Positions 7,201 through 60,208 are shown, numbered from the stretch's first letter. The stretch is 64,000 nucleotides of DNA from an uncultured virus (IMG/VR IMGVR_UViG_3300042473_000519) (IMGVR_UViG_3300042473_000519), one strand, 5' to 3'. Numbers and translations are program-made. The notes: generated by a model from the letters alone, not told the origin.

Positions 7201-9479
7201 TATTTGCAGGTCAACATTATACATTAACACAGCCCGTATTGGCCAATGTTAATATTATTGGAACTGGCGGACAGTTTAATTGTGATGCAACAACTCTTGC
7301 GGTTGGTATGACTATAACAATTAGTGGCACACTGGGCGGCACTGGCTCTATTACCAGCTATGCCAATCCAACTACTTATTATGTGATTGCTACAAATGGT
7401 CGTACAACATTCACACTGAGCACAACCAGCAATGTTAATCCTAACGTAACAACTGGTGTGGTAACTACTATTGGTACTCCAACTGGCCTAACATACACAT
7501 TGGGATATGTTTCTTATCAAAACAATGCTATCAAATTAGATAATTTGACTGGATATATTACTGCTCTTGGCTCAGGCTCTGGAGGTGCAGGCACATACAC
7601 AGTGAGTTCTGCCATTGGTGCAACTGGTAGTATTGCAATTTCTGGATCTAGTTATTCTTTGAACGCAAGTCAAACTGTTACAACTCCAGGTTTGATAACC
7701 GGTACTAATAATTTGATTACCGTTGATTCTTCTACTGGCATGGCAGTGGGCGAGAGCTTTGTAACTGATGTATCGGGAGCATTTGGTGGCTTGTCAAATA
7801 GTACAACATACTTTGTCACAGCAGTTCCAAGTGCAACAACTGTAGCAGTAAGTGCTAGCTTTGGCGGAACTAATTTGGCAGTTACAACTGCTACTGGTAC
7901 ACAGGCAATCACAGCAGGTGCTGCATTTGGCGGTTTAACATCAGCCACAACATATTACGTTGTCTCAATTAATCAGACTAATAGTCAGATACAAGTTAGT
8001 ACAAGTGCAACGTTAACACCAATTACTACTATTTCAAGTAATGTAGGCGGCAACTGGACCAGTGTAACAGGTGCAGGTGCAGGTGCAACAAGTCCGGATG
8101 GCATTAACTGGACTCCACGCACACTGAGCAATGCATCTTGGAATGCTTTGACATTTGGTAATACCAGCACTAGCTTTACTGGTAGTATCACTGGAACAAC
8201 ATTAACTGTTACAAGTACTCCAACTGGCAGCGGCATTATTACTGGTGCAGTGTTGAATGGCGTTGGTGTAATTGCTGGCACAACAATCACTGCTAACTTG
8301 ACTGGAACACAGTTTGGTTCAAGCAGTACTTGGACAGTTGACACTAGTCATGCTGTTTCAACAGGCAGCACTACTATTACCAGTGCGGCTCCTACATGGG
8401 CAGTTATTGCAAGTAGCAGTACAAGTGCATTGAGTATTCCTAACTTTACACGAGCAGAAGCCCGTGCAGTTGTTACCAGCGGACAGATCAGTAGTTTTAG
8501 AATCTACGAACCAGGTTCTGGATACACTACTCCTCCAACAATCACACTTGGCGACCCAAATGCCACGTCAACGGCCACGTACACAGTGAGAACTGGTATA
8601 GGCGTTTTGGGCAACCCAACATTTACCAATCGCGGCACTGGCTATACCAGTTCCACTACCACAATCAGTGGTAGCGGCTATGCTGACATTTTCCAAAATA
8701 ATCAGTACATGAATGTAAGTGGTATGACTGCTATTCCTACATTGGGTAGTAACATACAATTTGCAGGCAATAGTTCGTACTACAAGTTGGTAACAGTTAG
8801 TAGTCAAACAGGAACACCGGGTAACTACAGTGCTACATTACAAATTAGTCCTGTTATGACCATTGCACTTGCACCAGTACATGGTGTAGCAATCACAATG
8901 CGTATATTATACAGTCAAACTCGACTAACTGGACACGACTTCTTGAGTATTGGTACCGGCCCAATTGCCACAACCAATTATCCAAACACACCACTTCAAG
9001 CAGCCGACATAGCAAATGAAACTGTCGAAGCGGGCGGCGGGCGTGTGTTCTACACAAGTACTGACCAAGACGGTAACTTTAACGTGGGCGACTTGTTCAC
9101 TGTTCAGCAATCAACAGGTATTGCCACATTGAATGCCAATGCGTTTAACTTGAGCGGCCTACAAACATTACAATTAGGTAGTGTTACATTGGGCAGTTCA
9201 AACACAAGTATTAGTCAGTTCAGTACTGATGCAACATTCAGTGCAAACAGTGATACGATTGTGCCAACGCAGAAAGCTATCAGGGCATATGTTGCTAGCC
9301 AAATTGGCGGCGGCAACAGCACAGTTAACGTAAATACGCTGGTAGCAGGAACTATCGAAATTACAGGATCTCAGATTCGTAACACGGCAGGAACTCAGAT
9401 AAATATAAAGAATAAAGCTAACTTTACACAGGGTATAGACGGTAGTCCCTTAGCATTAAACTACTTCTTACTAAGATAA
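1227..9479 (+). CDS. Giant modular tail fibre/virion protein (2750 aa): N-terminal W/Y repeats, beta-helix-like region, Asp-box-like propeller, Thr/Gly/Ser-rich beta modules
   Basis: Repeats W.....Y..GDVV.YG...Y.C...HTS; W..VAYG..RFVAV and S.DG..W repeats; C-terminus shared with upstream paralogue; SD GGAG. Confidence 0.85.
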   Translation: MAEFKLGRIRFVWKGVWAGTTTYVKDDVVRVSGKVYICTTGHTSSADFYTDLASKWNITADGQTWRGTWTTPTYYNINDLVQYGGRVYICNTGHTSSTTLETNQSNWTLFASAFNWTGSWSQTTTYKVGDVVKYGASVYICNAAHTSQSTSIGLEGDTSSWDLVNRSFDYKTDWSGTTRYKLNDVVKYGADLWICTTYHTSAGTFDDTKWAIFVEGLQFESTWSGVTTYQKGDVVTYGGYSYVALQNHTNQTPSTATLYWTVLSTGFNFIGNWSGATAYKVGDVVRLNGYTYLSKLDHTNNEPPNGTYWELLNPGYQWLGAWTNGTAYKLGDSIKDGVNTYVCVLGHTAATATNKPTVDLVGTYWNLLAAGSETAVLTTQGDTLYYSGAGPARLPIGTDGQVLTVQGTNLYWNTFGNINNVYYVAVGGTDTAATDQGKTLDKPWATIAYACSQVAAGTLFPNAIYLFGENVNWAVREMYQYGEYAKTTSIAPFAPGSVYDGVKTLRDSRIILDAITQDLRSGSNTNTVNATMMYFATSTTFVNAATTSAMPFIIALLQRLKINIVTNALTNTAPGTNYQTLTSYTPAVNQVINLSYTSEAGATTAAGALFDIVINALTAVDTAGIPLPTTGYTSSIYVKSGVYSEVLPISIPENCAIIGDELRSTVIQPSSGYTTSNMFYMRNGSGLRNCTLQGLSGTLGAANSYGTQRPTAGAYASLDPGAGPDDASVWISRRSPYIQNVTTFGSCAIGLKVDGALHNGGNQSIVANDFTQVIDNGIGAWITNQGRAELVSVFTYYAHIGYLAEHGGKIRATNGNNSYGKFGSVSEGVNSSETPITATVNNRAVQAVVGNTFTSGASIYRLEYSNAGNAYPNSGTTFTFNSANGINATAVGDEVRDNAVFENRMLTTGAGFVSATNTAQSGTTTTIIIAGSDTAVSASYLGMRLLITSGLGVGQFGYIAFYNAGGKQAYIAKESFTALTASAVTATGALVTVASTLTLYVNQPIVFTGTAIGGFAVATVYYVQAITSATQFAVSATSGGAAISTGLTDVTASTMIVNAAGWDHVVVGTAISATMDSTTTYSIEPRVTFTAPSFATTSRTMPGTATNWSSTTYASGRFVAVSSSDGNSAYSVDGANWSAMTGLSSASAYVGVASGAISATTYFVTVAGTAATTVAYSSTNGTSWTAMTGLQSGTWTSVAYGNSRFVAVGNGTVTAYSANGTSWNNGGSVANANYIAVAYGTGPERFVAITGGTVLSQATAYSVDGAAWTAGALPQTAYWTSIAWGNGRFVAVAQGGTATAYSTDGITWTTPNTVLPFSYAWKNVAYGQGSFLATAAYLTPTVTAAYTGSNQITLSSTAGMATGQAWTPTVASQTTNATATTRAVASLNSSGTIGITGAGNVLTPGSANQGTVATGMVVTGNNVQTAQNIAVTGVTGSGSTVTVTYAQQTEALTGVVIAGTAGQFTCTATASALQVGQLVTVSGTLGGTGSITGYANPTTYFINKTNNNSTGFQLSGGTAAAGQTFTGNGTSALAMASTTNIQAGIPIYFTGANLATIGLVANTPYYVLSVVASTSITISSVPGGTALTFTAGTAATSVYVVPTVGVVTTTGTPTGLTYTYVKPVPFVSGQTIDLQGVAPIAYNGSYTVTGQPTATSVTFAGTTTTAYVSGGTVFSKPLYITGSNSFTSTSSSVSGVTLTVGGTITGTVAVGQAISGPVVTNNFAEVKNGVLSLQGTSVGTPAAGAYVSGPNITGASYTIAASAPSSFFGGITAGTAVTFTASIAPVSATDVGLGGIMSVTSAPSGTGIVVGYVISGTGVTGGTYVSAGLSGTATSNPSTWLVNLSQTVTSTTITATPITLNVSGVGSGTVVPGTVISWTNGFVAQSLAINNVNGNGLSATVTFSSVQASAPFATGQAITITGNANSNFNGTFKVTACSASICTFDSATSATGAGGTVVSAGSFVTANGTGTGGSGTYFISPAPTATVGGGTLFAGQHYTLTQPVLANVNIIGTGGQFNCDATTLAVGMTITISGTLGGTGSITSYANPTTYYVIATNGRTTFTLSTTSNVNPNVTTGVVTTIGTPTGLTYTLGYVSYQNNAIKLDNLTGYITALGSGSGGAGTYTVSSAIGATGSIAISGSSYSLNASQTVTTPGLITGTNNLITVDSSTGMAVGESFVTDVSGAFGGLSNSTTYFVTAVPSATTVAVSASFGGTNLAVTTATGTQAITAGAAFGGLTSATTYYVVSINQTNSQIQVSTSATLTPITTISSNVGGNWTSVTGAGAGATSPDGINWTPRTLSNASWNALTFGNTSTSFTGSITGTTLTVTSTPTGSGIITGAVLNGVGVIAGTTITANLTGTQFGSSSTWTVDTSHAVSTGSTTITSAAPTWAVIASSSTSALSIPNFTRAEARAVVTSGQISSFRIYEPGSGYTTPPTITLGDPNATSTATYTVRTGIGVLGNPTFTNRGTGYTSSTTTISGSGYADIFQNNQYMNVSGMTAIPTLGSNIQFAGNSSYYKLVTVSSQTGTPGNYSATLQISPVMTIALAPVHGVAITMRILYSQTRLTGHDFLSIGTGPIATTNYPNTPLQAADIANETVEAGGGRVFYTSTDQDGNFNVGDLFTVQQSTGIATLNANAFNLSGLQTLQLGSVTLGSSNTSISQFSTDATFSANSDTIVPTQKAIRAYVASQIGGGNSTVNVNTLVAGTIEITGSQIRNTAGTQINIKNKANFTQGIDGSPLALNYFLLR
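9398..9405 (+). promoter_or_regulatory. Putative late promoter (GATAAATA) inside the 3' end of the giant gene
   Basis: Same octamer as 1193 and 45402; about 90 nt upstream of the 9495 cassette. Confidence 0.45.
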
Positions 9480-9494
9480 TTGGAGAATTAAATT

Positions 9495-9815
9495 ATGGCA
9501 ACAGGAAGATTAGGCACAGCAGATCTGTCAGCAGCAACGAATACCACTTTGTATACTTGCCCTACAGGTACATTTGCTATTGTAAACATAACAATTTGTA
9601 ATAGGAATGCGTCAGGTGTTACAGTTAGACTAGCTCTTGCTAGTAGTGCAACACCGGGTGGTGCAGAGTGGTTAGAATTTGGTACAACTATTCCAGCAAA
9701 CGCTGTACTAGAGCGTACAGGTTTAGTACTAGATGCTGGAAAAGTATTAGTTGTTTATTCAAGCACAACCAGTGTTAATGCTGTAGCATACGGTATTGAA
9801 ACAAGCACAACTTAA
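9495..9815 (+). CDS. Small beta-rich virion protein (probable fibre-tip adaptor)
   Basis: TTLYTCP...NITICNRN...LERTGLVL..G...YGIE pattern typical of small phage tail proteins; SD GGAG. Confidence 0.6.
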   Translation: MATGRLGTADLSAATNTTLYTCPTGTFAIVNITICNRNASGVTVRLALASSATPGGAEWLEFGTTIPANAVLERTGLVLDAGKVLVVYSSTTSVNAVAYGIETSTT

Positions 9816-9830
9816 TAGGAAATAGATAAT

Positions 9831-11528
9831 ATGGGACGTTTTGTACCAGTATTAACTACTTGTATTACTTCTGAAAAGCAAGCTGCATTTAAAATGACAG
9901 CCGCAAGTTTGGGTGGTAGCATTGCACAAAGTCAAGCATATGGCACAACCTTACGTTACGGCGGAAAAGCATGTTACGACGGCAAGCAATGTTGGCAGTA
10001 CAAGTTAGTTTTAGATAAACCCGGAGCATATTGCTGGACAGTGCCAGCTGGCATAGTTTGTGCCAGAACAGTTCTTGTTGGCGGCGGCGGCAAACCAAAA
10101 TGCGGCAGTGTGCCTGATGCAAGCGGTTCAACGTGCGCAAGTGCTGCTGGCTCAGGCGGAGCATACAGCGAGAAAAATCACGCAGTAACAGGCGGCTCCA
10201 CATATTTCTGTATCCAAGTAGGCCGTCAAGAGCAAGATACAACAGTAAGTTGTAATGGTGTTGCTTCTCACACAGCAGGCGGAGCATCTGGCTGTGTTTC
10301 TGGCGTTGCTACAGGTGGAGATTGGAATAGTTGCGGCGGCTTGTCAGGATATTCTTGTAACAATTGCGGAAGTTCTTACAGTCACTATTGCGGAAGTTGT
10401 AAATGTTTTAGTGTTACAACTTGTTGTGGATACTGTGTAGTTTACCAATATACTGAAGGTGGACATGACGGTAACGGTTGCTGTAGTGCAAATATTGTTG
10501 GCGGTGCAAGCGCAGGTTCTTGGTTAGCAACTTGTGGCGGCGCATCTTGGTGTACTTGCGGCTACGGCGGCACAAGTCACGGAGCAGTTGTTGGTGGTGG
10601 AGCAGGTATTGGCGACTGGATCGCACAAGGCTGTACTTGGCATTATAACTGCTGTAACTGTATTTGTATGCAGGGGTGTCAGTATATTCCTCCTTATTTG
10701 ACTTGGTGTACAAATTGCCCACCGAGCGCCCAGGGCGGCGGTGGCACAAGTTTAGGACAAACACAATGCAGAAGTTGGGCGAGTCAAGACTGCATGTCTG
10801 GTGTATGGAAAGGTGGTGACGGAGGCCGTGGTGGCGCAAACCCTAAAGAATCACAAGCATGGCACGTTGAGTGGGGTTATGGAGCATATTGTTCGTATCC
10901 TTTTGGTTCTGCTTACTGCTATACTACGCATTGCTACGCTTGTAGCGAAGAAGGCCCTCAAAGACAAGAATGGTGGGATATACACGATATGGCCGGATCT
11001 GGTGCACCAGGCACAGTTGCAAGTAGAGCAAACACTAACGGTTGCAGAGGATTTTTCATCGGAGTTCGTCCACGAAACTCAGGTGAAGGTGCAGGAACTG
11101 GCGGCATTGCTACTACTTGCTGTAATCCTTTAATGATGGGTAACATGATTGGTACAACAGCTGGAGCAAACAGCGGAACAAGCGGAAGTCCAAACGTTAA
11201 CTGGTGTAAAATTTGCCAGTTAGGCGTTTGCGGCTGGTGTGATCAGGCATGGTTAATGCAGGATGCATTATTTCCATTCTTTATTACTTGCGCAGGAACA
11301 TTAGGCGGTTCTGGCGGTGTGTCGTGGTGCGGATATTCATCCAAAGCCGGCAAAGGCGGTGGCGGCGGCCAAGCAAAATGTCAATTCCTTTGTGTATGTT
11401 GGGGCGGTGCATTTGATTGCTGTAACGGTACAGCAGCTACACCACTAGCATTTCCTCCTTGCTTACTAGATCAAATGGTCAGTAATGCAGGTACAGGAAT
11501 GGCAATTATATATTATAGGGAAGCATAA
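9831..11528 (+). CDS. Gly-rich, Cys-rich adhesin-like virion protein A
   Basis: WTVPAGIV.ARTVLVGGGG start and G.GMAIIYY end of the phage glycine-rich domain; about 53 Cys in 565 aa by hand count. Confidence 0.65.
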   Translation: MGRFVPVLTTCITSEKQAAFKMTAASLGGSIAQSQAYGTTLRYGGKACYDGKQCWQYKLVLDKPGAYCWTVPAGIVCARTVLVGGGGKPKCGSVPDASGSTCASAAGSGGAYSEKNHAVTGGSTYFCIQVGRQEQDTTVSCNGVASHTAGGASGCVSGVATGGDWNSCGGLSGYSCNNCGSSYSHYCGSCKCFSVTTCCGYCVVYQYTEGGHDGNGCCSANIVGGASAGSWLATCGGASWCTCGYGGTSHGAVVGGGAGIGDWIAQGCTWHYNCCNCICMQGCQYIPPYLTWCTNCPPSAQGGGGTSLGQTQCRSWASQDCMSGVWKGGDGGRGGANPKESQAWHVEWGYGAYCSYPFGSAYCYTTHCYACSEEGPQRQEWWDIHDMAGSGAPGTVASRANTNGCRGFFIGVRPRNSGEGAGTGGIATTCCNPLMMGNMIGTTAGANSGTSGSPNVNWCKICQLGVCGWCDQAWLMQDALFPFFITCAGTLGGSGGVSWCGYSSKAGKGGGGGQAKCQFLCVCWGGAFDCCNGTAATPLAFPPCLLDQMVSNAGTGMAIIYYREA

Positions 11529-11530
11529 TA

Positions 11531-13171
11531 ATGGGACGTTATGTAAGCACTGGTACTTCTCAAGCTAACAGTTGTCAGCTTGCAGTATCTACTACTTGTT
11601 ATCAGTCAAATACTCAAAAATATTCTTATAGTTCCAACGATTGTTGGCAAAATAGAGTTATTTTAGACACTCCTGGTAACTATTCATTTACTGTTCCTTC
11701 CGGAATTACTTGTTTACGAGTAGTTTCAGTAGGCGGCGGCGGCAAACCAAAATGTACAGAAACTTGTTGCGGGTATGCAGGCGGCGGCGGCGGATATGCT
11801 GAACGCTACGACACTGTGTCCCCAGGCTGTGTTGTTTCGGTTGTTGTTGGTCGCCAAGAACAAGATACAACAATAAGTTACACTAACTCAAGTGCTGTAG
11901 CAAGAACAGTAACCGGCGGCGGAGCAGCCGGTTGTACACCAGGCGCAGCATCTGGTGGAGATTGGAATAGTATTGGCGGCACAGGCGGCAAAGGTTGTAA
12001 CTATTGCGGTGGTTCTCTCAGCCATTATTGCGGAACATGTATTTGTTTTTCTTTAACAACTTGCTGCGGGTATTGTATTGTTGTTGCCGGCGTTGGCATT
12101 GGCCAAACTCCAGGCCACGGTTCTGATCAATGTTGTAATGCACGTTATCCCGGCGGTGCAAGTGCTGGATGGTGGGGACATTTATGTGGCGGCAACGGAC
12201 AAGGCGCACAAAATTCAGTTGATATATACGGCGCATCAGGCGGCCACGGAGCAACTGCCGGCGGCGGCGGCGGCGTAGGTTATACCTTTAGACAAGATGT
12301 ACGTAGCGGCCCTTGCAGTTGTATGTGCGGCTCAGCAAACCAAGGCGGGCAAGGCGGGCCGCATCAGCGTAATGCCTGTTTTCCAAACAGCGCGGGCGGC
12401 GGCGGCGGAACAAAATGGCAAATTTGCACTTGTTGTGAATGCCAAAATATGTACAATACCAATTGTACCTGCGGATTCTGGATCGAAGGCCACGGCGGTT
12501 GGGGTGGCTATGATAACCACTCAGGTGTTGGCGGATGTATTGATTGGGATTGTATCGGCTTCTATTGCGGTAATTATGCGTCGTGTACTATGTACACACC
12601 ACCGAGTAAAGATCCAATAGTTCACAGCTGGCACGACATTCACAGTATGTGCGGATCCGGCTCTGCTGGTAGAAGCCATCACAGGGATAATGACTACTGG
12701 TGCGGGTCAATTCTGTGGGCAACACGAGAAGATCAAACAACTCGTCCAGCAAATGCAGGTGAAGGCGCAGGAACAGGCGGCGTAGTATTTGTTTGCTGTG
12801 CTACACAGTTCCATTACAATAATAATTCACTATATGTAAATTGGCCATTCGTATGTTGCCTAGGATTGACAGGTAAGGTATGTTGCTCAGATAGATTTGC
12901 ACAATCGTTGTTTCCTAACATTATTAGTTGTGCAGGAACATTGGGCGGATCAGGCGGAGTAGGAATCTGTACCATGATGTCAAAAGCAGGTAAAGGCGGT
13001 GGTGGCGGCGTATTTAGAAACTATATCTTATGCGTTTGTTATGGTAATAGTACGTTTAACACTTGCAACGGCGACGGAGTTACTGCTTTAGCATACCCTG
13101 CATGTGAGTTAGATTGGAGAATTAGCAATGCTGGTACTGGTATGGCTATTATCTATTGGAAAGATGCTTAA
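11531..13171 (+). CDS. Gly-rich, Cys-rich adhesin-like virion protein B (paralogue of A)
   Basis: Shares VGGGGKPKC, VGRQEQDTT, SHYCG.C.CFS.TTCCGYC, CAGTLGGSGGV and SNAGTGMAIIY with A; about 48 Cys in 546 aa. Confidence 0.65.
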   Translation: MGRYVSTGTSQANSCQLAVSTTCYQSNTQKYSYSSNDCWQNRVILDTPGNYSFTVPSGITCLRVVSVGGGGKPKCTETCCGYAGGGGGYAERYDTVSPGCVVSVVVGRQEQDTTISYTNSSAVARTVTGGGAAGCTPGAASGGDWNSIGGTGGKGCNYCGGSLSHYCGTCICFSLTTCCGYCIVVAGVGIGQTPGHGSDQCCNARYPGGASAGWWGHLCGGNGQGAQNSVDIYGASGGHGATAGGGGGVGYTFRQDVRSGPCSCMCGSANQGGQGGPHQRNACFPNSAGGGGGTKWQICTCCECQNMYNTNCTCGFWIEGHGGWGGYDNHSGVGGCIDWDCIGFYCGNYASCTMYTPPSKDPIVHSWHDIHSMCGSGSAGRSHHRDNDYWCGSILWATREDQTTRPANAGEGAGTGGVVFVCCATQFHYNNNSLYVNWPFVCCLGLTGKVCCSDRFAQSLFPNIISCAGTLGGSGGVGICTMMSKAGKGGGGGVFRNYILCVCYGNSTFNTCNGDGVTALAYPACELDWRISNAGTGMAIIYWKDA

Positions 13172-13188
13172 TAATTCAGGAGAAATAA

Positions 13189-13713
13189 ATGATTTGGGCA
13201 AAAATAGTAAACAATGAAATCATGCAAACGCATGACGAAGATCCTTCGGGACTGTGGCATCCAGATCAGATCGCAAAAAACGATCTGCCTGGGTATTGGG
13301 AACAAGTTCCTGACCATGTTAATGTAGGTTGGAAATTTAAGAACGACGAATGGATCAGTGGCGGACAGTGGTTAGAAGAGCACATTGCTGAAAACCCAAC
13401 ACCGCCGCCAGGGCCGCCGTTCGCTGACTGGTCTAACTACGTTGTTAAAGACAACGGCAACACTGTCAAACTGGGATTCCATGCAACTCCTAACGGTATT
13501 TGGGATACTTACAGTTGGGTTATCAACGGAGAAGAATACGGCCAAGAAGAGTTTGTCGAAATTGAATTTGTAAAACAAGCAACAAAAGTCGTAATTAGTG
13601 TAGTTCTAACAGTAACTGGTCCAGGCGGAACTGTAACTAGCGAGCATAAAGATCCAGTGGAGATTCAGGCAAAACCACTATCTTTAGTACCTGTAGAAAT
13701 TCCTACAGTTTAA
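13189..13713 (+). CDS. Fibre-associated protein with C-terminal PKD/Ig-like domain
   Basis: MIWAKIVNNEI-type N-terminus, Pro linker, then P.AD...YSW...V.LTVTGPGG; SD AGGAG. Confidence 0.5.
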   Translation: MIWAKIVNNEIMQTHDEDPSGLWHPDQIAKNDLPGYWEQVPDHVNVGWKFKNDEWISGGQWLEEHIAENPTPPPGPPFADWSNYVVKDNGNTVKLGFHATPNGIWDTYSWVINGEEYGQEEFVEIEFVKQATKVVISVVLTVTGPGGTVTSEHKDPVEIQAKPLSLVPVEIPTV

Positions 13714-14252
13714 ATAAAGTTAGGGCCGTAAAACCACCCAAAGATTGCATATCTTACACCTGATGTAACTTGTGTGATTCGATGGGGAAGAAAAGAGGGG
13801 AGAACCAAAAGTTTTCCCCTTTCCTTTTCTATATAGGTATTGCCTAACAATTCAAATTGGCCGCCTTCAAAATCGTCGTTCAGCATTAATGTAAAAGTTA
13901 TTTTACGCTGATGATCACCAGGCACACAATCCATATGCAGTTCTTGGTAATGCATACCCGTTTCATATTTTGCAAAAAAACAATCAGATTTAAGTGCATT
14001 GACGTTGAGTCTATAATATTCAAAATTAGCAGATAATACTTGATCCCGTAATCCCGGGATTTCGTTAATATCAATATCTTTTATTTTAACAGATCTATAA
14101 GATACATTATTGTCGCCATCTTGATTTTTTAATTCTAAATCAGTATCGTAGTTTTTAATCAGTTTATCACATACATCTTCTTCTAACAAGTGCTTAGATA
14201 ATACTCGAATTTGTTCGTACACAGATGGGTTATAGAATGGTGGCGTTGGCAT
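13710..14252 (-). CDS. 2OG-Fe(II) oxygenase, prolyl-hydroxylase/PKHD type
   Basis: HMD...RKITFTLMLNDDFEGG...PSFLPHRI..V..G.RY; start moved to ATG 14252, which has an AAGGA SD. Confidence 0.85.
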   Translation of the reverse strand: MPTPPFYNPSVYEQIRVLSKHLLEEDVCDKLIKNYDTDLELKNQDGDNNVSYRSVKIKDIDINEIPGLRDQVLSANFEYYRLNVNALKSDCFFAKYETGMHYQELHMDCVPGDHQRKITFTLMLNDDFEGGQFELLGNTYIEKERGKLLVLPSFLPHRITQVTSGVRYAIFGWFYGPNFI

Positions 14253-14808
14253 AAATGTTTTCCTTAGTGTAGTATTTTGAACTGTGATTAGATGTTGCAA
14301 TCTCCATATTAATTGCTATTCTATAATCAGTCGACGAGTGATACTGCGGCTCGTGCGGAACATAGCTTGGCATTATGACAAGATCGCCTTCGTCCGGCTG
14401 AAATGTACCGTACAGTTTTTCATCTTTTACCAGTGACAATCCGCCTTCATTATTAGCAATGTCATCGGGTATTTTTAGATAATAAATTGCGTTGATAGAA
14501 CACGTTCCTTTATGTTCGTGCATGTTTGTTCTAAAACTATCTTTGTTATAAACATTTGCCCAACACCAAGATCTGTTCTTAGGAGCAAGCATTAACTTTC
14601 CAAATATTTTTTCAGTGCATTCGATAGTATAGTTATACAGTTTTTTAAAATCGCCTTGTTCTGTATCTACAACTCGAAACGTGTAGCCACCGTAATAATT
14701 TCCAATATCTTTTTGTGACAAGACAGTATCGATCATCCGTTGCCTAGTCTCAGCAGTTATTGCAAATGTTGTTTGTAGTATTTCTGGAAAATTAGGATCG
14801 TATATCAT
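14230..14808 (-). CDS. Putative 2OG-Fe(II) oxygenase (HxH, TIGR02466-like)
   Basis: WANVY...HEH...AIYYL...P.EGDLVIMPS..PH...RIAIN. Confidence 0.8.
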   Translation of the reverse strand: MIYDPNFPEILQTTFAITAETRQRMIDTVLSQKDIGNYYGGYTFRVVDTEQGDFKKLYNYTIECTEKIFGKLMLAPKNRSWCWANVYNKDSFRTNMHEHKGTCSINAIYYLKIPDDIANNEGGLSLVKDEKLYGTFQPDEGDLVIMPSYVPHEPQYHSSTDYRIAINMEIATSNHSSKYYTKENIYANATIL

Positions 14809-15443
14809 GCTTTAATATTGAAACTGATAATAACTCGATCTTCGCCGGACATATTAGGATGTGATTCATGTTTGACATACCCAGGAAAAACATACATCTT
14901 GCCCGGAATTGCTCCCATTATATGGCGATTATTGCCACGCCATTTAGTGTTTGCAGGTTCGTTGCTTAACGAATATTCTTTAGGATCCGAGAATATTAAA
15001 TCACCACATGCAGGATCTGCTTTTACATAGTAGACACCACTCCAGTGACTGCTACCGTGATTATGACTAGGAACCCATGCACCTTCCGGATATACACTTG
15101 CCCATGAATTTTCAAAACTCCACTTATTGATAAACGGGGAAGCTTCGGGAAAATTTAGTTGTTTGAAAAAATCAGTGATTAACGGAGTAATTATATCAAA
15201 GAACTCTTTAAAATTAGGATTATCTACTAGACTTGCATGATTAAACGAACTATATCCTGTTGCTGGTTTTGGATTATCTGTTAGTACAAAGTTGTTCCAT
15301 TCATAACTCAAAAGTCGCTTGTCGTCCATATCAGAAAACATAGCAGTTATATTTTCATAAAGAGAAACGTTCAACGCATCAACATTATCAAATTGAGTTT
15401 CTAATATAGGTACGCTAAATGCATTAACAATTTTTTTCAACAT
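14805..15443 (-). CDS. Putative 2OG-Fe(II) oxygenase (HxH, TIGR02466-like)
   Basis: SWASVY...HNH...WSGVYY...GDLIF.DP...FPGYVKH...RVIISFN; start moved to ATG 15443 (GGAG SD). Confidence 0.85.
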   Translation of the reverse strand: MLKKIVNAFSVPILETQFDNVDALNVSLYENITAMFSDMDDKRLLSYEWNNFVLTDNPKPATGYSSFNHASLVDNPNFKEFFDIITPLITDFFKQLNFPEASPFINKWSFENSWASVYPEGAWVPSHNHGSSHWSGVYYVKADPACGDLIFSDPKEYSLSNEPANTKWRGNNRHIMGAIPGKMYVFPGYVKHESHPNMSGEDRVIISFNIKA

Positions 15444-15520
15444 GATAAATCTCCAGTTTAGGCACGAAACAGTTTTTGTTTGCATATATATAGTCTAGGA
15501 TATACTTTCAATAACAGATA

Positions 15521-15638
15521 ATGGCAAGACTTTTTACTTTTGGTTGTTCGCTTACAAACTATGTCTGGCCACATGGAGCAACAATTTGAATGGGTTGCTA
15601 AACAACAAACAAACATTGGGTATCCGTACAGTACATAA
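15521..15638 (+). pseudogene. Remnant of an SGNH-like gene (internal deletion/frameshift)
   Basis: Reads MARLFTFGCSLTNYVWP then goes out of frame; the FGCS motif parallels NGDSF of the next gene. Confidence 0.55.
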
Positions 15639-15641
15639 TTC

Positions 15642-16409
15642 ATGAAAACACTATATGCAAACGGCGATTCATTTATCTTTGGAATGGAGATTATAGAAGA
15701 TTACAACCGAGAAGAACATAATAAAGAATATGCATTTCCAAAAGTTATTGCATCCGGATTAAATTGCGAAACTTATATAAACAATTCTTATAACGGTGCA
15801 ACCAACGATTTTATTTTTAGAAATACTATCTTTGATCTACTTGAGTTAGAAAAAACTGGCACTAACCCTGAAGATGTATTTGTTATAATTGGTTGGTCTA
15901 GTTTGCATAGAACAGAAGTTGATGGTACTGCTTGGTTTAGCAAAATACCAAATTTTAATCTTAATCTTAACAATATTTTTTTAAGCGAACATGCACCTAT
16001 AGAATTTAAAGATTTTGGTACAATGTTTGTCAACCCAACTTGTGGAACCGTTGTCCAGACCAAGGGTAAACTTCATAGTGTAGTTGAAGATGTTGTACCA
16101 TTTTGTGTAGATTATTTGTGGACAGACGAACTGCAACGTCCCCAACAGGAAGCTAGAATAATTGCGTTACATGAATTTTTAAAATCAAAAGGTTACAAGC
16201 ATATATTCGTAAACACAGTTGATAAAGTTGACTATAAAATTATCGATACAAGCTGTGTAAATTTTTACAAATTGAATTCAGAAGCAGTTTACAATTGGGG
16301 AAGTGTTAATCATATTGACCGTCGCCGAATGGCCGGCCACTTTGATGCAATAGTTCACGAAGAATACGGCAAAATTTTGCTTGACTATATATCAGAAAAC
16401 CTTGTATAG
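15642..16409 (+). CDS. SGNH/GDSL-like hydrolase/acyltransferase
   Basis: LYANGDSF (catalytic Ser block), N.SYNGATN, IIGWS, C-terminal GHF...H. Confidence 0.7.
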   Translation: MKTLYANGDSFIFGMEIIEDYNREEHNKEYAFPKVIASGLNCETYINNSYNGATNDFIFRNTIFDLLELEKTGTNPEDVFVIIGWSSLHRTEVDGTAWFSKIPNFNLNLNNIFLSEHAPIEFKDFGTMFVNPTCGTVVQTKGKLHSVVEDVVPFCVDYLWTDELQRPQQEARIIALHEFLKSKGYKHIFVNTVDKVDYKIIDTSCVNFYKLNSEAVYNWGSVNHIDRRRMAGHFDAIVHEEYGKILLDYISENLV

Positions 16410-16430
16410 TATTATATGCTAGTATAAATA
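16381..16430 (+). promoter_or_regulatory. Tandem sigma70-like (TTGACT-18-TATAGT) and late (TATAAATA 16423-16430) promoters
   Basis: Exact T4 late consensus upstream of the GT9/carbamoyltransferase operon. Confidence 0.6.
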
Positions 16431-16449
16431 TCCAGACTATAGGAATCAT

Positions 16450-17373
16450 ATGAAAAAAGTTGTCTTTATTAATGGTGGCGCAGGCCGTGTTATAGCAAGT
16501 ATACCCGCTCTAGAAGAATTAGATAGCAGAGGTGAACTTGCAGGAATTGTTTGCGAAGGCGGACTAGAGATGTTCATGGGACATCCGACATTACAGGCCA
16601 AAGCCTGGGACGTTAACCACAAGGGGTTATTTGAAGATCTTATTAAGGACAATATCTGTGTTAGTGCAGAACCTTATAGAGATCATGAATACTACAACCA
16701 GAGAAGTAGCTTACAGCAGAGCTTTTGGTGGGATATTTTAGGCGAGCGTACTGATAAAAATCAAAAGCCCACCCTAAACTTAAACAAACACGAAGAAATG
16801 GCAGCTGTTGGATTAATGACTCAAGTAAAACAACAGCATCAGAAAGAAAAAACAATTGTGATTCAGCCGTTTGGCCGTAGCAGTCAAATGGGTCCAGGTA
16901 TTGTATATGACGGAAGCAGTCGTAGTATTGAACAAGCAACGTTTATGGAACTTGTAGCAGAACTATCTAAAGACTATAACATGATTTACATGGGTGAACA
17001 TAAACTAGACGTAGTAAACTTGCCTTTGTTCCAACCTCAAGAACAAGTTCCATTGCGGGTATGGGCTGCAATCATTGAAAGCTCCGACTATTTTATTGGT
17101 TGCGATAGTGTAGGACAGCATCTTGCATATACTTTTGATAAACCTGGCACTGTAATCTTAGGAAGCACTTTTGGCATTAATGTTTCATTCCCAGAGCATT
17201 TCAATATTGTTGAAAAGAAAGGTGCAAAGAAAGTTTATAGTCCTATCAGGATTGCTGGATTTGCAAGCGAAGAAGCGGATAGATTAAACGATACATTGAT
17301 GGATTTTAGCAAAGAAGAATTAAAAACTATCATTGCAGGCATCAAAGAACATATTAAGAAAACAACAAAATAA
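16450..17373 (+). CDS. GT9-like (heptosyltransferase-like, GT-B) glycosyltransferase
   Basis: INGGAGRVIASIPAL; IVIQPFG; AAIIE.SDYFIGCDSVGQHLA...KPGTVILG resembles the GT9 C-terminal D-S-G..H-L-A motif. Confidence 0.75.
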   Translation: MKKVVFINGGAGRVIASIPALEELDSRGELAGIVCEGGLEMFMGHPTLQAKAWDVNHKGLFEDLIKDNICVSAEPYRDHEYYNQRSSLQQSFWWDILGERTDKNQKPTLNLNKHEEMAAVGLMTQVKQQHQKEKTIVIQPFGRSSQMGPGIVYDGSSRSIEQATFMELVAELSKDYNMIYMGEHKLDVVNLPLFQPQEQVPLRVWAAIIESSDYFIGCDSVGQHLAYTFDKPGTVILGSTFGINVSFPEHFNIVEKKGAKKVYSPIRIAGFASEEADRLNDTLMDFSKEELKTIIAGIKEHIKKTTK

Positions 17374-17385
17374 GGATACCTAAGC

Positions 17386-19098
17386 ATGTGGTTAATGGCT
17401 ATTAATGTAGGGCACAACGGTGCTTGTGCGCTGTACGAAGATAACAAACTAGTATACTATATCGAAGAAGATCGATTAAGCAGAATGAAGTACGATGGCA
17501 ATCCTTTCTTAGGCATGGAAGAAGCATTCAAATATACTGATCATATTGATTTCTTAATTTTATGCGGGACTAGAAATGCGTTTGGACAAGTTCCTTGGAC
17601 AGCCGAAGATGCATATACCTGTTATGTAAGAAAGAAACAACCTGGGCATAAGATGGAAACTATTAAGTTAGGTGATGATCATCACATGACTCATGCAGTT
17701 TGTGCATTTTATAATTCAGGATTCGACGATGCCGCAGCTATTGTTATCGACGGCGCCGGCAGCGGTTTAGACTTGCCTGATATGGAAGGTTTAAAACATG
17801 AATCGTGGGAAGTAGAATCTATCTGGAGTTTGTCATACCCAGCAGAAATTACCAAACATCTAGTGCATTACGGCACTAATTTAGTAGATAGTTTCAGCCT
17901 AACCGACAACGATACATATATTGAAATGTCTGACGGCCATGGTATTACAAAGAGTTACGAAGCTGTAACACAATACTTAGGATTCCATGCTATTGAAGCT
18001 GGCAAAACTATGGGCATTGCACCTTACGGTAAACCAAATGATAGTATTAAAATTCATGAAGGTAAATTTAACAATCGTAACTTGATTAAACCTAAGTTTC
18101 CAGCAGGCAATGTAATTCGATGCGATTTAAATCCCGAGTTAAAAGAGCACGAAAGTGATGCATCGTGGCATAAGGATGAATCTGCAATTAACGATCTTCA
18201 AAAAGATCTAGCTTATGCTGTACAAAAATCTACAGAAGAGCGGGTAATTGCGTTGATCAAACAGACTATCGAAATTACAGGTAAAAAGAAAATTGTAATG
18301 GCCGGCGGTTATGTTTTAAACTGCGTTGCAAACTACGAATTTTTGAAAGAATTCCCAGATGTTGAATTTTATCACGAACCAGTTAGTCACGATGGCGGCA
18401 CAGTTATGGGTGCATGCCAGTATGTTTATAGGAAAATTACAGGTAACAACGAGCCAACACCATTGACATCGTTGTACATTGGTCCAGATAGATCCGGAGA
18501 ATATGCAGCCGCAAACTTTGACGGATTTACCGTTGAAGGTACTACTGCTAGTGATGTAGCTAAACTTATTGCAGACGGTAATATTGTTACATTGTTCCAA
18601 GGACGTAGCGAAGCAGGCCCACGAGCACTGGGTAACAGAAGTATTTTATTTGACCCAACTGTGCCTGACGGTAAAGACATTGTTAATCTAGTTAAAAACA
18701 GAGAATGGTTCCGTCCATTTGCTGGATCATGTTTAGCAGAACACGCATTAGACTGGTTTGACCTTGCAGGTAGGAAAGAAAGTCCTAGTATGATGTATGC
18801 TGTTGACGTACTAGCAGACAAACGTGATAAGATTCCAGCAATTACACACGTAGACGGTACTTGTCGTGTGCAAACAGTTACACAAGAGCAGAATCCTCAC
18901 TATTATAACTTGATCAGCGAGTTTAATAAAATTAAAGGTGTACCTATTTTGTTCAATACTAGTTTTAACTTGGCAGGAGATCCGCTAGTTGAAAAAATAA
19001 GCGAAGCATTAGACACTTTGAATCGCTCTAGCATGAAATACTTATGGTTGCCTGAAATTGGAAAATTGTTAACGAAGAATGAATTGCAGGAAGTTTGA
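17386..19098 (+). CDS. Carbamoyltransferase, NodU/CmcH/TobZ family, full length
   Basis: EEDRLSR.K, HH.THA, VIDGAG, GKTMG, GPRALGNRS, REWFRPFA, HVDGTCRVQTV, NTSFN. Confidence 0.93.
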   Translation: MWLMAINVGHNGACALYEDNKLVYYIEEDRLSRMKYDGNPFLGMEEAFKYTDHIDFLILCGTRNAFGQVPWTAEDAYTCYVRKKQPGHKMETIKLGDDHHMTHAVCAFYNSGFDDAAAIVIDGAGSGLDLPDMEGLKHESWEVESIWSLSYPAEITKHLVHYGTNLVDSFSLTDNDTYIEMSDGHGITKSYEAVTQYLGFHAIEAGKTMGIAPYGKPNDSIKIHEGKFNNRNLIKPKFPAGNVIRCDLNPELKEHESDASWHKDESAINDLQKDLAYAVQKSTEERVIALIKQTIEITGKKKIVMAGGYVLNCVANYEFLKEFPDVEFYHEPVSHDGGTVMGACQYVYRKITGNNEPTPLTSLYIGPDRSGEYAAANFDGFTVEGTTASDVAKLIADGNIVTLFQGRSEAGPRALGNRSILFDPTVPDGKDIVNLVKNREWFRPFAGSCLAEHALDWFDLAGRKESPSMMYAVDVLADKRDKIPAITHVDGTCRVQTVTQEQNPHYYNLISEFNKIKGVPILFNTSFNLAGDPLVEKISEALDTLNRSSMKYLWLPEIGKLLTKNELQEV

Positions 19099-19712
19099 TG
19101 AATAGTTTTTTTAATTTGTCAACTAATTTAATTTTAATTAAAGACTTGTCTGATGAGATTGATTTTGATCTCATCAGATCAGAGTTTGACAAACTTGAAT
19201 TTACAAAAAATCTACATAATGAAATAAGTATCAATCGAGATTTATTTAATAGACCTGAATTTAAAGAAATTAAGGAAGCATTAGAGAAGGAATGCGAGGA
19301 CTATTTAAGAAATGCATACAATGTTAATCTATTTGAAAAAATAGAAATTACTAACTCGTGGGCTAATAGATCCACGCAAGGCGGTAGCCATCAAGACCAC
19401 GCACACCCATTTAGCGTTGTCAGTGGTGTATTATACTTAGACGATAATCCTGATAATTTAAATTTTGCTATGAATACTAGTTCCCAAGAGATTCCTTGTT
19501 ATTTGTATAAAAAGCAAATACAAGCAACAATTAGAGATTTAGCTGGCTCCGAAGATAATCTTAAAAATCATTTGCTACTGATATTGTCAAATGTTGGACA
19601 TCAAGTTTTTCCTGCACAACTAGATACAGCACGTAGGACTATTGCATTTAATACATTCTGGAAAGGATGCACTGGAAATGCAGATGATATATTAAATTCT
19701 AGAGTATTTTAA
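19095..19712 (+). CDS. Putative 2OG-Fe(II) oxygenase (HxH, TIGR02466-like)
   Basis: SWAN...H..HAHP.SVVSGVLYL...H.V...R.TIAFN. Confidence 0.8.
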   Translation: MMNSFFNLSTNLILIKDLSDEIDFDLIRSEFDKLEFTKNLHNEISINRDLFNRPEFKEIKEALEKECEDYLRNAYNVNLFEKIEITNSWANRSTQGGSHQDHAHPFSVVSGVLYLDDNPDNLNFAMNTSSQEIPCYLYKKQIQATIRDLAGSEDNLKNHLLLILSNVGHQVFPAQLDTARRTIAFNTFWKGCTGNADDILNSRVF

Positions 19713-19713
19713 T

Positions 19714-19741
19714 AAAAAAGGAGCATTTAGCTCCTTTTTTT
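19714..19741. terminator. Bidirectional intrinsic terminator
   Basis: AAAAAAGGAGC-ATTTA-GCTCCTTTTTT between convergent genes. Confidence 0.85.
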
Positions 19742-20321
19742 ATTCCAGCGAATTAGCAAAATCTAATAAACTGCTAAATTCTTTTACTTTAGTTTGATGC
19801 GTTAGTTCAAACGCTTTGAGTTTAGACTCGCTATTAGCAGTTTTAATTAAAACAGGAATAGCTTTCATTTTAGTAGATGCTTTAACATCGTTTGTTTCGC
19901 TTCCTACAAAATGCACCCCATCCCATTTGAGATTATTTTCTGATGCCGCACGCTCCCACATACCCGTATTTGGTCTAACATACGGGTCATTTTTATCAGT
20001 ACCCGGTGCATAATAAACATTGCGAACTCGGCCGCCTAGTTGTTCGATAAACTGTCTTGCTCCAGTGATAATATTTTCAAAATCGTGCATTTCTAAAGCA
20101 CGGGTTCTGCTAGAAGGTTGGCCCGTAATAATGATAAAATCGTATCCTTTTTGAGACAGAATCTGTATTGCTTTGTCAACACCTTCTACAGGCATAATTG
20201 CATCACCGGGTGTAAAAACCCGTGTGTTGTCAACCAATACATTGAACAATCCCACACCCATAACCTTGCGGTTTGCCTGCAACTTCCATACTTCTTTGAA
20301 ATATTCCGAATAACGACCCAT
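19740..20321 (-). CDS. GmhB-like HAD IIIA phosphatase homologue with degenerate active site
   Basis: Overall GmhB layout (GV..AI..L..KGY...IIT.Q; .P..GM; FVG....D..A....A.PVL), but the motif I DxD is missing. Confidence 0.7.
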   Translation of the reverse strand: MGRYSEYFKEVWKLQANRKVMGVGLFNVLVDNTRVFTPGDAIMPVEGVDKAIQILSQKGYDFIIITGQPSSRTRALEMHDFENIITGARQFIEQLGGRVRNVYYAPGTDKNDPYVRPNTGMWERAASENNLKWDGVHFVGSETNDVKASTKMKAIPVLIKTANSESKLKAFELTHQTKVKEFSSLLDFANSLE

Positions 20322-34646: not shown

Positions 34647-35306
34647 ATGATTATAGGCGTTTGCGGTTTTATTGGTTCTGGCAAAGATACTATTGCCGAC
34701 TACCTTACTAACTTTCACGGATTTCGTCGAGAATCATTTGCCAATAGTCTTAAAGATGCAGTGGCACAAGTGTTCGGCTGGGACCGTACTATGTTAGAAG
34801 GACGCACTAAACAAGCCCGTGAATGGCGTGAACAGGTAGATCCTTGGTGGTCAGAACGCTTGAATATACCCAATCTCACACCACGTTGGGTGTTACAATA
34901 CTGGGGTACTGAAGTATGTCGTCGAGCATTTCACGATGATATTTGGATTGCCAGTTTAGAAAACAAGCTACGTAATAGTACAGACGATGTTGTTATCAGT
35001 GATTGCCGCTTTCCTAACGAAATTAAGTCAATTAAAGATGCTGGCGGCATTGTTGTACGTGTTCTCCGAGGCACTGAACCTGAATGGTACGACGCGGCAA
35101 TCAGCATGAATAAAGGTGACCGAGGCAACATGACCTGGGCATTGAGCAAGTCTAAAATAGAAGAATTAGGAATTCATGCCAGTGAAACTGCATGGGTTGG
35201 TACTGAGTTTGATGCTGTATTAGACAACAATGGACACATTGATGACTTGTACGCCCAAGTATACCCTCTTATAAATCGGGAATTAACTTCGGCGGAGTCA
35301 ATTTAA
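34647..35306 (+). CDS. gp1: Deoxynucleoside monophosphate kinase (gp1-like)
   Basis: IIGVCGFIGSGKDT; SFA..LK; TPR..LQ.WGTE; ISDCRF.NE; HASE. Confidence 0.92.
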   Translation: MIIGVCGFIGSGKDTIADYLTNFHGFRRESFANSLKDAVAQVFGWDRTMLEGRTKQAREWREQVDPWWSERLNIPNLTPRWVLQYWGTEVCRRAFHDDIWIASLENKLRNSTDDVVISDCRFPNEIKSIKDAGGIVVRVLRGTEPEWYDAAISMNKGDRGNMTWALSKSKIEELGIHASETAWVGTEFDAVLDNNGHIDDLYAQVYPLINRELTSAESI

Positions 35307-35988
35307 TAGCCACTTGACAGTTTAAACAGATTGTTTTGTATTTTTTATTTTCTTTATTTACAAGTAATTGTTCTGTAAATTTTGATTTAAAATTACATAT
35401 TTCGCAATTTGTTAATTTTTTATAGCCATCCCGCATCCAATCTGGAACCCGTTCTCGTGTATCTCCTTTACTACAAATAGTACAAGTTGATCTATAAAAG
35501 GTCTTGCCTTCTTTGATATAATTAATAGTTTTTGGTCGAATTCCGCATATCTTACAAGATCCCCTATCAAATACTTTTGTTAGATCAGTATGTGCAGATA
35601 AGATTTCATCCTGTATTGTTTTTTCTTTTTTATATTCTTTGCCAGCTTGTCGATATATTTTACTAATTATTGACTTTGCAAGAGCATATTTTTTTGAATT
35701 TAATCGAGTACGTTTTCCGTCACGATCCTGCATAGACATAGCATTAATAGCCTGTGCCATCTTAATTCCACTATCGCCTCTGTACATTTTAGCTAATAGC
35801 AAGTGTGCTACAAAATGCTCCCTTGCAGTTAAGATTACTAAATTTTCAGGAACATCAGCACCTCCTAAACTCCTAGGAAGAATATGATGAGACTCTGTAT
35901 AAACAGTTGGCTTAACACGCATTTTACAATTAGCAATAATCAAAGCGTACCATTTTGTATATTTGTTTTTTATTAAATCTGGATGCAT
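35269..35988 (-). CDS. HNH (Mob-like) endonuclease domain fused to a four-CxxC Zn-binding domain
   Basis: YTESHHILPRSLGG.D..ENLV.LTAREHFVAHLLL; CKIC, CTIC, CEIC, CLNC. Confidence 0.8.
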   Translation of the reverse strand: MHPDLIKNKYTKWYALIIANCKMRVKPTVYTESHHILPRSLGGADVPENLVILTAREHFVAHLLLAKMYRGDSGIKMAQAINAMSMQDRDGKRTRLNSKKYALAKSIISKIYRQAGKEYKKEKTIQDEILSAHTDLTKVFDRGSCKICGIRPKTINYIKEGKTFYRSTCTICSKGDTRERVPDWMRDGYKKLTNCEICNFKSKFTEQLLVNKENKKYKTICLNCQVAIKLTPPKLIPDL

Positions 35989-36088: not shown

Positions 36089-36120
36089 CATTAGAACATG
36101 TATTCATGGAGATAAAACAT

Positions 36121-60111: not shown

Positions 60112-60208
60112 TTTTTTATTACGACCTTGGTACAAGTATCAAGAACGCAAACGTTTTAAAGAACGGCTCGAAGAATTACGCAAACGTGATCCATTTATCT
60201 ACAAATGA
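60095..60208 (+). CDS. 37-aa basic microprotein (missed by the ORF track)
   Basis: MKRIIDFLLRPWYKYQERKRFKERLEELRKRDPFIYK; AAGGA SD; ATGA-coupled to the carbamoyltransferase. Confidence 0.7.
   Translation: MKRIIDFLLRPWYKYQERKRFKERLEELRKRDPFIYK

Follow-up and report, generated by a model that had tools for sequence, protein, structure and literature searches.

A glycosyltransferase–carbamoyltransferase cassette next to cysteine-rich tail-fibre tips in a PA5oct-like jumbo phage: a candidate system for glycosylation of the phage's own fibres

What does a phage do with one enzyme that transfers sugars and another that carbamoylates them, both encoded behind the tips of its tail fibres? This question is raised by the uncultured virus IMGVR_UViG_3300042473_000519, from which a stretch of 64,000 nt—the window, from whose first letter all window positions are counted—was analysed, with a focus on the block at positions 9495-20321. 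The source record of the window, a fragment of 108 kb, is given a completeness of 30%. The block encodes two cysteine- and glycine-rich proteins (CysA and CysB), a glycosyltransferase (GT), an O-carbamoyltransferase, four 2-oxoglutarate (2OG)-Fe(II) oxygenases, an SGNH-like protein and a protein of the haloacid dehalogenase (HAD) type (Table 1). An earlier note, made from the sequence alone, had described it as a candidate system for decorating the virion and as a block between structural genes; all open reading frames (ORFs) that it named are present, and fibre and structural genes are found on both flanks. We tentatively read the region as a host-recognition (tail-fibre) module, whose enzymes glycosylate the phage's own protein—most probably the Cys-rich fibre tips. 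The pairing of GT and carbamoyltransferase with Cys-rich fibre genes is seen among the predicted genes of hundreds of aquatic phages.

A late glycosyltransferase–carbamoyltransferase pair

From its predicted structure, the GT can confidently be assigned to the GT9 fold, a GT-B architecture of two Rossmann domains. The AlphaFold2 (AF2) model, for which an alignment of 86 diverse relatives was used, reaches a predicted local distance difference test (pLDDT) score of 97.4, and Foldseek places it closest to 3tov (E 3e-9, TMq 0.64) and TibC (4rap; E 6.5e-9, TMq 0.60), followed by WaaF and WaaC; the matches include the GT9 structures 1psw, 2gt1, 2h1f and 6dfe. D219 and H224—invariant in the 86 sequences—are part of a C-terminal DSxGxH motif, which the family profile aligns to WaaF and WaaC. 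The label "GT9-like", first given from sequence, now has a structural footing, with the protein heptosyltransferase TibC among the close matches. On the level of sequence profiles, PF01075 is matched at E <=0.01 by 44 of the 86 relatives, and the window GT scores 17.4 bits against TIGR02201 (cut-off 170). The donor of this enzyme would be heptose or a related nucleoside diphosphate (NDP)-sugar.

The carbamoyltransferase is complete, as the earlier note had held: its Kae1-like N-terminal domain (PF02543, 74.4 bits, cut-off 24) and its YrdC-like C-terminal domain (PF16861, 202.9 bits, cut-off 27) both score above their cut-offs. It is homologous along its length to NovN (1.4e-54), GdmN and TobZ, and its His-rich metal motif (His99, His100, His103) aligns with that of NovN (9s2t). 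Against the NodU equivalog NF041651 it reaches 142.8 bits at a cut-off of 1000 and is, hence, a member of the family rather than NodU itself.

Both genes follow a T4-type late box, TATAAATA, located 20 nt before the start codon of the GT. The window holds 5 copies of TATAAATA compared with 5.4 expected by chance, so that the count alone is uninformative; the weight rests on the position of the box and on its conservation before the GT in relatives. For the latter, a GT-anchored profile scan of IMG/VR was used, which matched at least 603 stretches, at least 588 of them encoding relatives; the best 80 loci were retained, and all counts of GT loci given here and below refer to these. From -120 to +60 of the GT start, ATAAATA occurs in 44 of 79 loci and the exact TATAAATA in 28 of 79, against backgrounds of 3.3% and 1.3%, respectively, in windows of equal size. 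Within our window, 6 of the 12 plus-strand copies of ATAAATA precede a gene start by no more than 60 nt; among these starts are those of the giant fibre and the tail sheath. Sigma-70-like promoters are not found above chance in the block (40 versus 32.8 +/- 5.4 expected).

Cysteine-rich proteins as predicted fibre tips

The fibre operon runs from the 2750-aa fibre via g106, CysA and CysB to g174 with intergenic gaps of 2-17 nt. The giant fibre bears five CBM_5_12 chitin/carbohydrate-binding modules (CBMs) near its N-terminus, and homologues of g106 in the phage database are restricted to GT-positive cyanophages and Acidithiobacillus phage AcaML1. CysA contains 53 Cys (9.4%) and 105 Gly (18.6%) in 565 residues, CysB 48 Cys (8.8%) and 105 Gly (19.2%) in 546 residues. 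In an alignment of 13 homologues from six contigs, 15 Cys are invariant and 3 nearly invariant, and invariant glycine blocks alternate with variable stretches. Structural disulfides or metal sites may account for these conserved Cys at least as well as a sugar linked to their sulfur.

An AF2 model of CysA, calculated from the shallow set of 13 sequences, has a pLDDT of 32.7, with moderately confident parts around residues 55-165 and 555-565—the last strand. VIA-align matches this model best to the fibre of cyanophage Pam3 (7ypx; Z 11.2, root-mean-square deviation 3.3, 132 residues, 26% identity), then to the Bxb1 tail tip (Z 10.2) and to the glycine-rich domains (GRD) of ALK (Z 7.4-8.2); the following match is at 4.7. 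Pfam, including PF21722 (Gly_rich_2), gives no match to CysA or CysB even at E 10. PF21722 is matched by 2 of 10 scanned shorter Cys/Gly-rich proteins of marine relatives, one of which, a 272-aa relative from locus L027, reaches 43.8 bits (cut-off 24.3). The profile of these shorter, PF21722-type proteins (A4) aligns to the CysA/B profile (A1) in hhalign with 95.4% probability over the N-terminal 90 columns. Taken from the model, the match to Pam3 supports an assignment of CysA and CysB as tail-fibre tips of the Pam3 gp24 type, in agreement with the fibre-type adhesins of the earlier note.

Sequence and profile searches of the PDB with CysA/B, g106, g174 and the SGNH-like DUF6071 protein gave nothing usable, and a tblastn search with CysA gave no match, for which the low-complexity filter is the probable cause. 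For g174, Pfam and PHROG scans gave no family match and an Atlas search weak PKD-like leads; the protein may be an assembly chaperone or accessory.

Linkage of the enzymes to cysteine-rich genes

Of the 75 loci that have at least 2 kb of downstream sequence, 73 encode a carbamoyltransferase no further than 1.5 kb from the GT, the two others being L033 (none) and L065 (2.8 kb away). A Cys-rich ORF—defined by a minimum length of 200 aa, a Cys content of 7% or more and a location within 10 kb of the GT—is present in 45 of the 55 loci whose upstream sequence measures 6 kb or more; in 43 loci it lies upstream of the GT, at a median distance of 871 bp. Among the ten misses, three belong to the clade of the window (L023, L028, L084) and carry CysA/B genes 11-12 kb upstream on the same contig, beyond the flank; five have Gly-rich homologues with 4.8-6% Cys, and two—L033 and L049—are real. 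The Cys-rich neighbours measure 205-1397 aa and fall into at least eight BLAST-unrelated families. Hence, the constant feature is cysteine richness and not one protein family.

The reverse direction was covered by 27 loci anchored on the CysA/B family alone. Where at least 7.8 kb of downstream sequence was available (n=21), a GT follows within 10 kb in 16 loci and at 11-12 kb on the same contig in three. As negative controls, stop-to-stop frames of at least 200 aa were taken from the GT-lacking genomes of S-T4, Sf-CH8, PA5oct and S-CAM8, and 0 of these 415 reach 7% Cys; for comparison, 6 of 114 such frames do so in the GT-carrying S-CAM1 and 3 of 61 in the record of the window. S-CAM8 carries a paralogue of the carbamoyltransferase without a GT and without a Cys-rich ORF, so that the link is to the GT rather than to the carbamoyltransferase in itself. 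N4-like Vibrio and Aeromonas phages, too, have a GT homologue (25% identity) between tail-fibre genes, there without a carbamoyltransferase; in Vibrio phage vB_VspP_SBP1 (L019, 8001-11522), the gene immediately after it encodes a 925-aa tail protein with 4.4% Cys. The co-occurrence that the earlier note had put forward as a check is, hence, borne out as co-inheritance in both directions, together with the absence of Cys-rich ORFs from the four GT-lacking genomes.

Accessory genes and sugar supply

Across GT loci, genes for oxygenases, for the SGNH-like protein and for the HAD protein are found repeatedly, yet none is universal. A HAD homologue is found in 43 of 66 loci, a homologue of g106 in 33 of 52, an oxygenase gene with its start no more than 300 bp behind the carbamoyltransferase in 30 of 70 and a DUF6071/SGNH-like gene—often adjoining GT or carbamoyltransferase—in 27 of 80. 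The earlier note had let the first three oxygenases follow directly on the fibre genes; however, a 174-aa ORF (13189-13713) intervenes and the oxygenases are encoded on the opposite strand. The trio (13710-15485) forms a separate minus-strand unit that is variable in relatives—ox3 is missing from L004-type relatives—and probably forms part of the unrelated cargo that a hyperplastic region carries. The comparison to a natural-product-like tailoring island was, with a separate and variable trio that sits among unrelated cargo in relatives, overstated: in our reading, recurrent accessories of the cassette are limited to the SGNH-like gene and the oxygenase gene that follows the carbamoyltransferase. 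For the former, the label fits, as the protein matches DUF6071 and bears Gly-Asp-Ser at residues 8-10 of its N-terminus (block I of SGNH).

In relatives, the part of the island that extends from the fibre tips to the HAD gene contains insertions that encode a tryptophan halogenase, a TctA/TctC tricarboxylate transporter, a luciferase-like monooxygenase and a GATase (L084:6832-8442, L084:14596-16032, L084:18378-19379, L003:15591-17059); other oxygenase genes are inserted as well. In the window, a fifth 2OG-Fe(II) oxygenase gene adjoins the helicase gene of the replication module (55309-55896, plus strand). Cyanomyoviruses are known to carry 2OG oxygenase genes in multiple copies dispersed over the genome (PMC3037559).

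In marine relatives, the HAD gene is flanked by genes for a cytidylyltransferase-like nucleotidyltransferase, a PfkB kinase, a cupin and a short-chain dehydrogenase/reductase (SDR) epimerase, and the annotations of P-SSM2 and S-CAM1 hold the kinase, nucleotidyltransferase, cupin and epimerase as well. This marine set looks like a self-contained supply of NDP-heptose.

Table 1 Features of the window. Positions are counted from its first letter; empty cells, nothing reported.
Feature	Position	Strand	Basis and remarks
Giant tail fibre, 2750 aa, first gene of fibre operon	1227-9479	+	phrog_9851 tail fiber, E 2.7e-188; PF02839 in 5 stretches
g106, small conserved protein, opens module	9495-9815	+	phrog_11338 and phrog_693 "tail fiber"
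CysA, predicted Cys/Gly-rich fibre tip with TNF-like domain and expanded glycine-rich domain	9831-11528	+	Composition, VIA-align, hhalign
CysB, paralogue of CysA (44% identity)	11531-13171	+	Alignment A1, composition
g174, small conserved protein, 174 aa	13189-13713	+	Syntenic in relatives
ox1, 2OG-Fe(II) oxygenase	13710-14300	-	PF13640, 50.2 bits (cut-off 27)
Terminator-like hairpin, 12-bp stem and T-run	13794-13822	+	Strong; likely end of fibre operon
ox2, 2OG-Fe(II) oxygenase	14230-14808	-	PF13759, 35.2 bits (cut-off 27)
ox3, 2OG-Fe(II) oxygenase	14805-15485	-	PF13759, 69.4 bits (cut-off 27)
DUF6071/SGNH-like protein	15642-16409	+	PF19547, 35.6 bits (cut-off 27), profile positions 12-84 of 247 only
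T4-type late box TATAAATA	16423-16430	+	20 nt before GT ATG at 16450
GT, GT-B fold, GT9-like, 307 aa	16450-17373	+	AF2, Foldseek, family profile; phrog_8954 (function not annotated)
O-carbamoyltransferase, NodU/CmcH/TobZ family, both domains	17386-19098	+	Pfam, PDB
ox4, 2OG-Fe(II) oxygenase	19095-19712	+	PF13759, 44.2 bits (cut-off 27); overlaps carbamoyltransferase stop by 4 nt
HAD-IIIA phosphatase-like protein, GmhB-related	19740-20321	-	TIGR01662, 46.5 bits (cut-off 44.6)
Tail sheath	36106-39330	+	
Large terminase	43808-45403	+	

Proposed mechanism and its alternatives

The reading that we tentatively favour can be put as a sequence of steps. The late fibre operon would provide the giant fibre, g106, the two paralogous Cys/Gly-rich tips and a small accessory protein, and a second late unit would provide the soluble GT9-fold GT, the TobZ-type O-carbamoyltransferase and a 2OG oxygenase, with the HAD-IIIA gene adjoining. 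Late in infection, the GT might then move heptose—or the sugar of a related NDP-sugar—onto phage-made protein in the cytoplasm. The acceptor would most probably be the Cys-rich tips encoded just upstream, in the manner in which TibC and AAH act on autotransporter adhesins, where they heptosylate serines (PMC4358343). Subsequently, the carbamoyltransferase might O-carbamoylate the sugar, as has been proposed for the putative WapO, which would act on heptose II in the core of Pseudomonas lipopolysaccharide (LPS) (PMC8005017), and the SGNH-like enzyme as well as the oxygenase encoded behind the carbamoyltransferase may further tailor the glycan. An S-linkage to Cys is pure conjecture: that this phage branch of GT9—with an Arg where LPS heptosyltransferases may have their catalytic Asp—and the carbamoyltransferase should place carbamoyl-heptose on Cys, or on Cys-flanked sites of the tips, seems quite improbable to us.

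Several observations weigh against glycosylation of the tips. No glycan has so far been observed on any such virion, and linkage within a fibre module can reflect the co-transfer of a host-range cassette without any relation of enzyme and substrate. L033 carries the GT alone, and L049 has carbamoyltransferase and GT beside fibres that are Gly-rich but Cys-poor (0.1% Cys)—the clearest natural exception to the cysteine link. The model of CysA is poor overall, and its fold match is carried by the N-terminal sandwich and the last strand only. The window GT has no match to PF01075 even at E 10 and no other Pfam match, and its N-terminal motif reads Gly-Gly-x-Gly-Arg, with Gly12-Arg13 nearly invariant in the family. 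At what may be the equivalent position, WaaC has a Gly-Asp with the catalytic base Asp13. Likewise, the HAD protein, called GmhB-like in the earlier note, passes the HAD-IIIA model but fails the cut-offs of the GmhB equivalogs (NF006506, 65.3 bits at a cut-off of 178; TIGR00213, 19.2 at 149.6); its motif I is Asp30-Asn-Thr in the window and in five close relatives—without the second Asp of Asp-x-Asp—and marine homologues retain Asp-Arg-Asp-Gly. A search of the 108 kb record, about 30% complete, with PF13580, PF01467 and, by tblastn, marine queries found no kinase, nucleotidyltransferase, cupin or epimerase. With these supply genes not in the record and a degenerate HAD motif I, the donor would, hence, come from the host or from the unsequenced ~70% of the genome. 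Fibre tips, GT9 fold, co-inheritance, late box and marine supply genes speak for decoration of the virion as the earlier note had conceived it, and its tailoring island and its GmhB do not.

As a side observation, the gene order in L049 (1142-18810) is reversed—carbamoyltransferase, then GT—and the flanking giant proteins measure 2141 and 990 aa with 20% Gly and 0.1% Cys.

The same enzymes might instead remodel the host envelope, altering a surface glycan or lipid with, for example, a block of superinfection or the release of progeny as the outcome. This is how related genes are read in cyanophage and pelagiphage papers (PMC3037559, PMC12801897, PMC7029224); GT9 enzymes are classically heptosyltransferases of the LPS core, and heptose and carbamoyl groups are known to be paired in the Pseudomonas core (PMC8005017). 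We consider it unlikely, as a conserved late box and genes embedded in a fibre module stand against it, as does the location of the GT family between tail-fibre genes in unrelated N4-like phages. Envelope remodelling does not predict the two-way tie to Cys-rich fibre genes either, nor the absence of these from GT-lacking genomes. The LPS of marine picocyanobacteria is not known to contain heptose.

Alternatively, the sugar might be placed on another acceptor: another virion protein such as the 2750-aa CBM fibre or a 1168-aa structural protein, a protein modified transiently in a chaperone-like way, or a small molecule. In L049, the enzymes occur together with giant fibres that are rich in Gly but poor in Cys, and small molecules are the usual substrates of TobZ-family enzymes. 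Still, the Cys-rich ORFs are the most constant neighbours, at the median distance given above, whereas other structural neighbours vary, and we regard a different acceptor as rather doubtful.

Tips and enzymes might also lack any functional link and merely travel together as one mobile host-range block of a hyperplastic region. The island is indeed plastic, with halogenase, luciferase-like, TctA/TctC, GATase and many oxygenase genes inserted in relatives; the distance from tip to GT ranges from below 1 kb to 12 kb, and the module crosses phage families. The association is, however, kept across the at least eight unrelated Cys-rich families and across GT identities of 40-80%, and long Cys-rich frames are absent in the four GT-lacking genomes; simple co-travel is unlikely in our view. 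Hypermodification of DNA by base glycosylation or carbamoylation can nearly be dismissed: phage GTs often glycosylate DNA (PMC12619734, PMC12801897) and a second, stand-alone Carbam_trans_N gene is part of the replication module, but the late box and the site among fibre genes contrast with DNA-modifying enzymes, which act with replication, and neither the GT9 fold nor the link to heptose-supply genes fits.

The carrier phage

A nucleotide search of the phage database with the block gave no match. On the protein level, the closest named relatives of carbamoyltransferase, GT and g106 are found in the cyanomyoviruses S-CAM1, S-CAM3, P-SSM2/P-SSM5, S-SSM7 and Sf-FS3 (38-51% identity). The large terminase, on the other hand, is 53.8% identical to that of the PA5oct group (Pseudomonas phage), 51% to that of Sinorhizobium phage Phosso and ~46% to those of Rak2-like jumbo phages, and the tail sheath is nearest to PA5oct and Atu_ph07, with cyanomyovirus sheaths aligning to its last 27% only. 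Near metagenomic relatives are contigs of 280 and 356 kb. Judged by these predicted core genes, the phage is, hence, a PA5oct-like jumbo phage of the T4 superfamily—not a cyanomyovirus—and has its host-recognition module, not its core, in common with cyanomyoviruses. In terms of its sequence, the genome appears as a mosaic, in which the host-recognition block moves across phage families. "Moraphage" was considered as a relative, and no kinship to the present lineage is apparent from the available part of PMC12619734.

Two further genes of the window may be mentioned. A homing-endonuclease gene (phrog_655; 35269-35988, minus strand) lies between the genes of a deoxynucleoside monophosphate (dNMP) kinase and the tail sheath. 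The stand-alone Carbam_trans_N (Kae1-like) protein of 318 aa (60205-61161, plus strand; PF02543, 85.6 bits) is encoded between primase and DnaB-like helicase, is without a YrdC-like C-terminal domain and may belong with nucleic-acid modification, not with the fibre cassette.

Significance and comparison with known systems

If the enzymes decorate the tips, the "LPS genes" of cyanophages would become a virion glycosylation system for receptor-binding proteins. In that case, glycans of phage origin would matter for host range, particle stability and recognition among abundant aquatic phages, and a family of protein heptosyltransferases would be added outside bacterial pathogens. Should carbamoyl-heptose indeed be placed at Cys, this would be a new viral protein modification that tunes host range or shields the tips—shared by hundreds of aquatic phages that range from cyanomyoviruses to jumbo phages. 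The question is directly testable by mass spectrometry in cultured carriers. The window shows the module, as judged from gene content, moving between phage families as part of a host-recognition block.

The closest known counterpart is the cassette of cyanomyoviruses (P-SSM2, PSSM2_302-313; S-CAM1, SXBG_00216-00228; S-CAM3, S-SSM7, P-SSM5 and Sf-FS3), which has the same gene order: a homologue of g106, two to three Cys/Gly-rich proteins (8-12% Cys), the GT (38-41% identity) and the carbamoyltransferase (48-51% identity). There, it is listed under "LPS genes" with a use that is not known (PMC3037559). The present cassette differs in its carrier—a PA5oct-like jumbo phage—and in its tips, which are about twice as long (546-565 aa compared with 278-356 aa). 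It differs further in its surroundings, as the record of the window lacks genes for the kinase, nucleotidyltransferase, isomerase and epimerase and HAD motif I is degenerate.

With TibC and AAH (PDB 4rap, 4rb4), the window GT shares the GT-B, GT9-like fold, as expressed by the Foldseek match to TibC. These enzymes glycosylate adhesins in the cytoplasm using adenosine diphosphate (ADP)-heptose (PMC4358343). The phage enzyme is, in contrast, shorter (307 aa versus ~400 aa), just 12-13% identical and paired with a carbamoyltransferase; dodecamer, beta-hairpin thumb and iron finger, as featured by TibC/AAH, are not evident for it. The pairing itself resembles Pseudomonas, where GT9 enzymes (WaaC/WaaF) and a carbamoyltransferase of the NodU family—the putative WapO (PA5005)—give O-carbamoyl-heptose (PMC8005017). 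The acceptor is Kdo-lipid A in that case, whereas the genes of the window are late phage genes in a fibre module.

The predicted architecture of the tips—a TNF-like domain and a glycine-rich tip for receptor binding, in which conserved Gly motifs alternate with variable segments—is like that of Pam3 gp24 (7ypx; PMC9608196) and of gp38 of T-even phages and S16. In Pam3, the fibre gene (gp24) is followed by that of the chaperone gp25 (PMC9608196), and in the window the small gene g174 comes after the tips. The word "disulfide" does not occur in the main text of the Pam3 paper (PMC9608196). Unlike Pam3 gp24, CysA and CysB have ~50 Cys each, contain an insert of far greater size and do not match PF21722. 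Virion proteins are reportedly glycosylated by mycobacteriophage GTs encoded next to structural genes, as described by Freeman et al. in 2023; that system is said to involve other GT families, capsid and tail-tube targets and other hosts, unlike the one of the window. In the literature on cyanophage carbamoyltransferase and heptose genes, virion glycosylation and gp38-type adhesins, we found no paper that links these genes to Cys-rich tips or virion glycosylation. New in comparison with these systems are the PA5oct-like jumbo carrier, the tips of double length, the loss of the supply genes from the neighbourhood along with a degenerate HAD, and the whole-genome negative controls.

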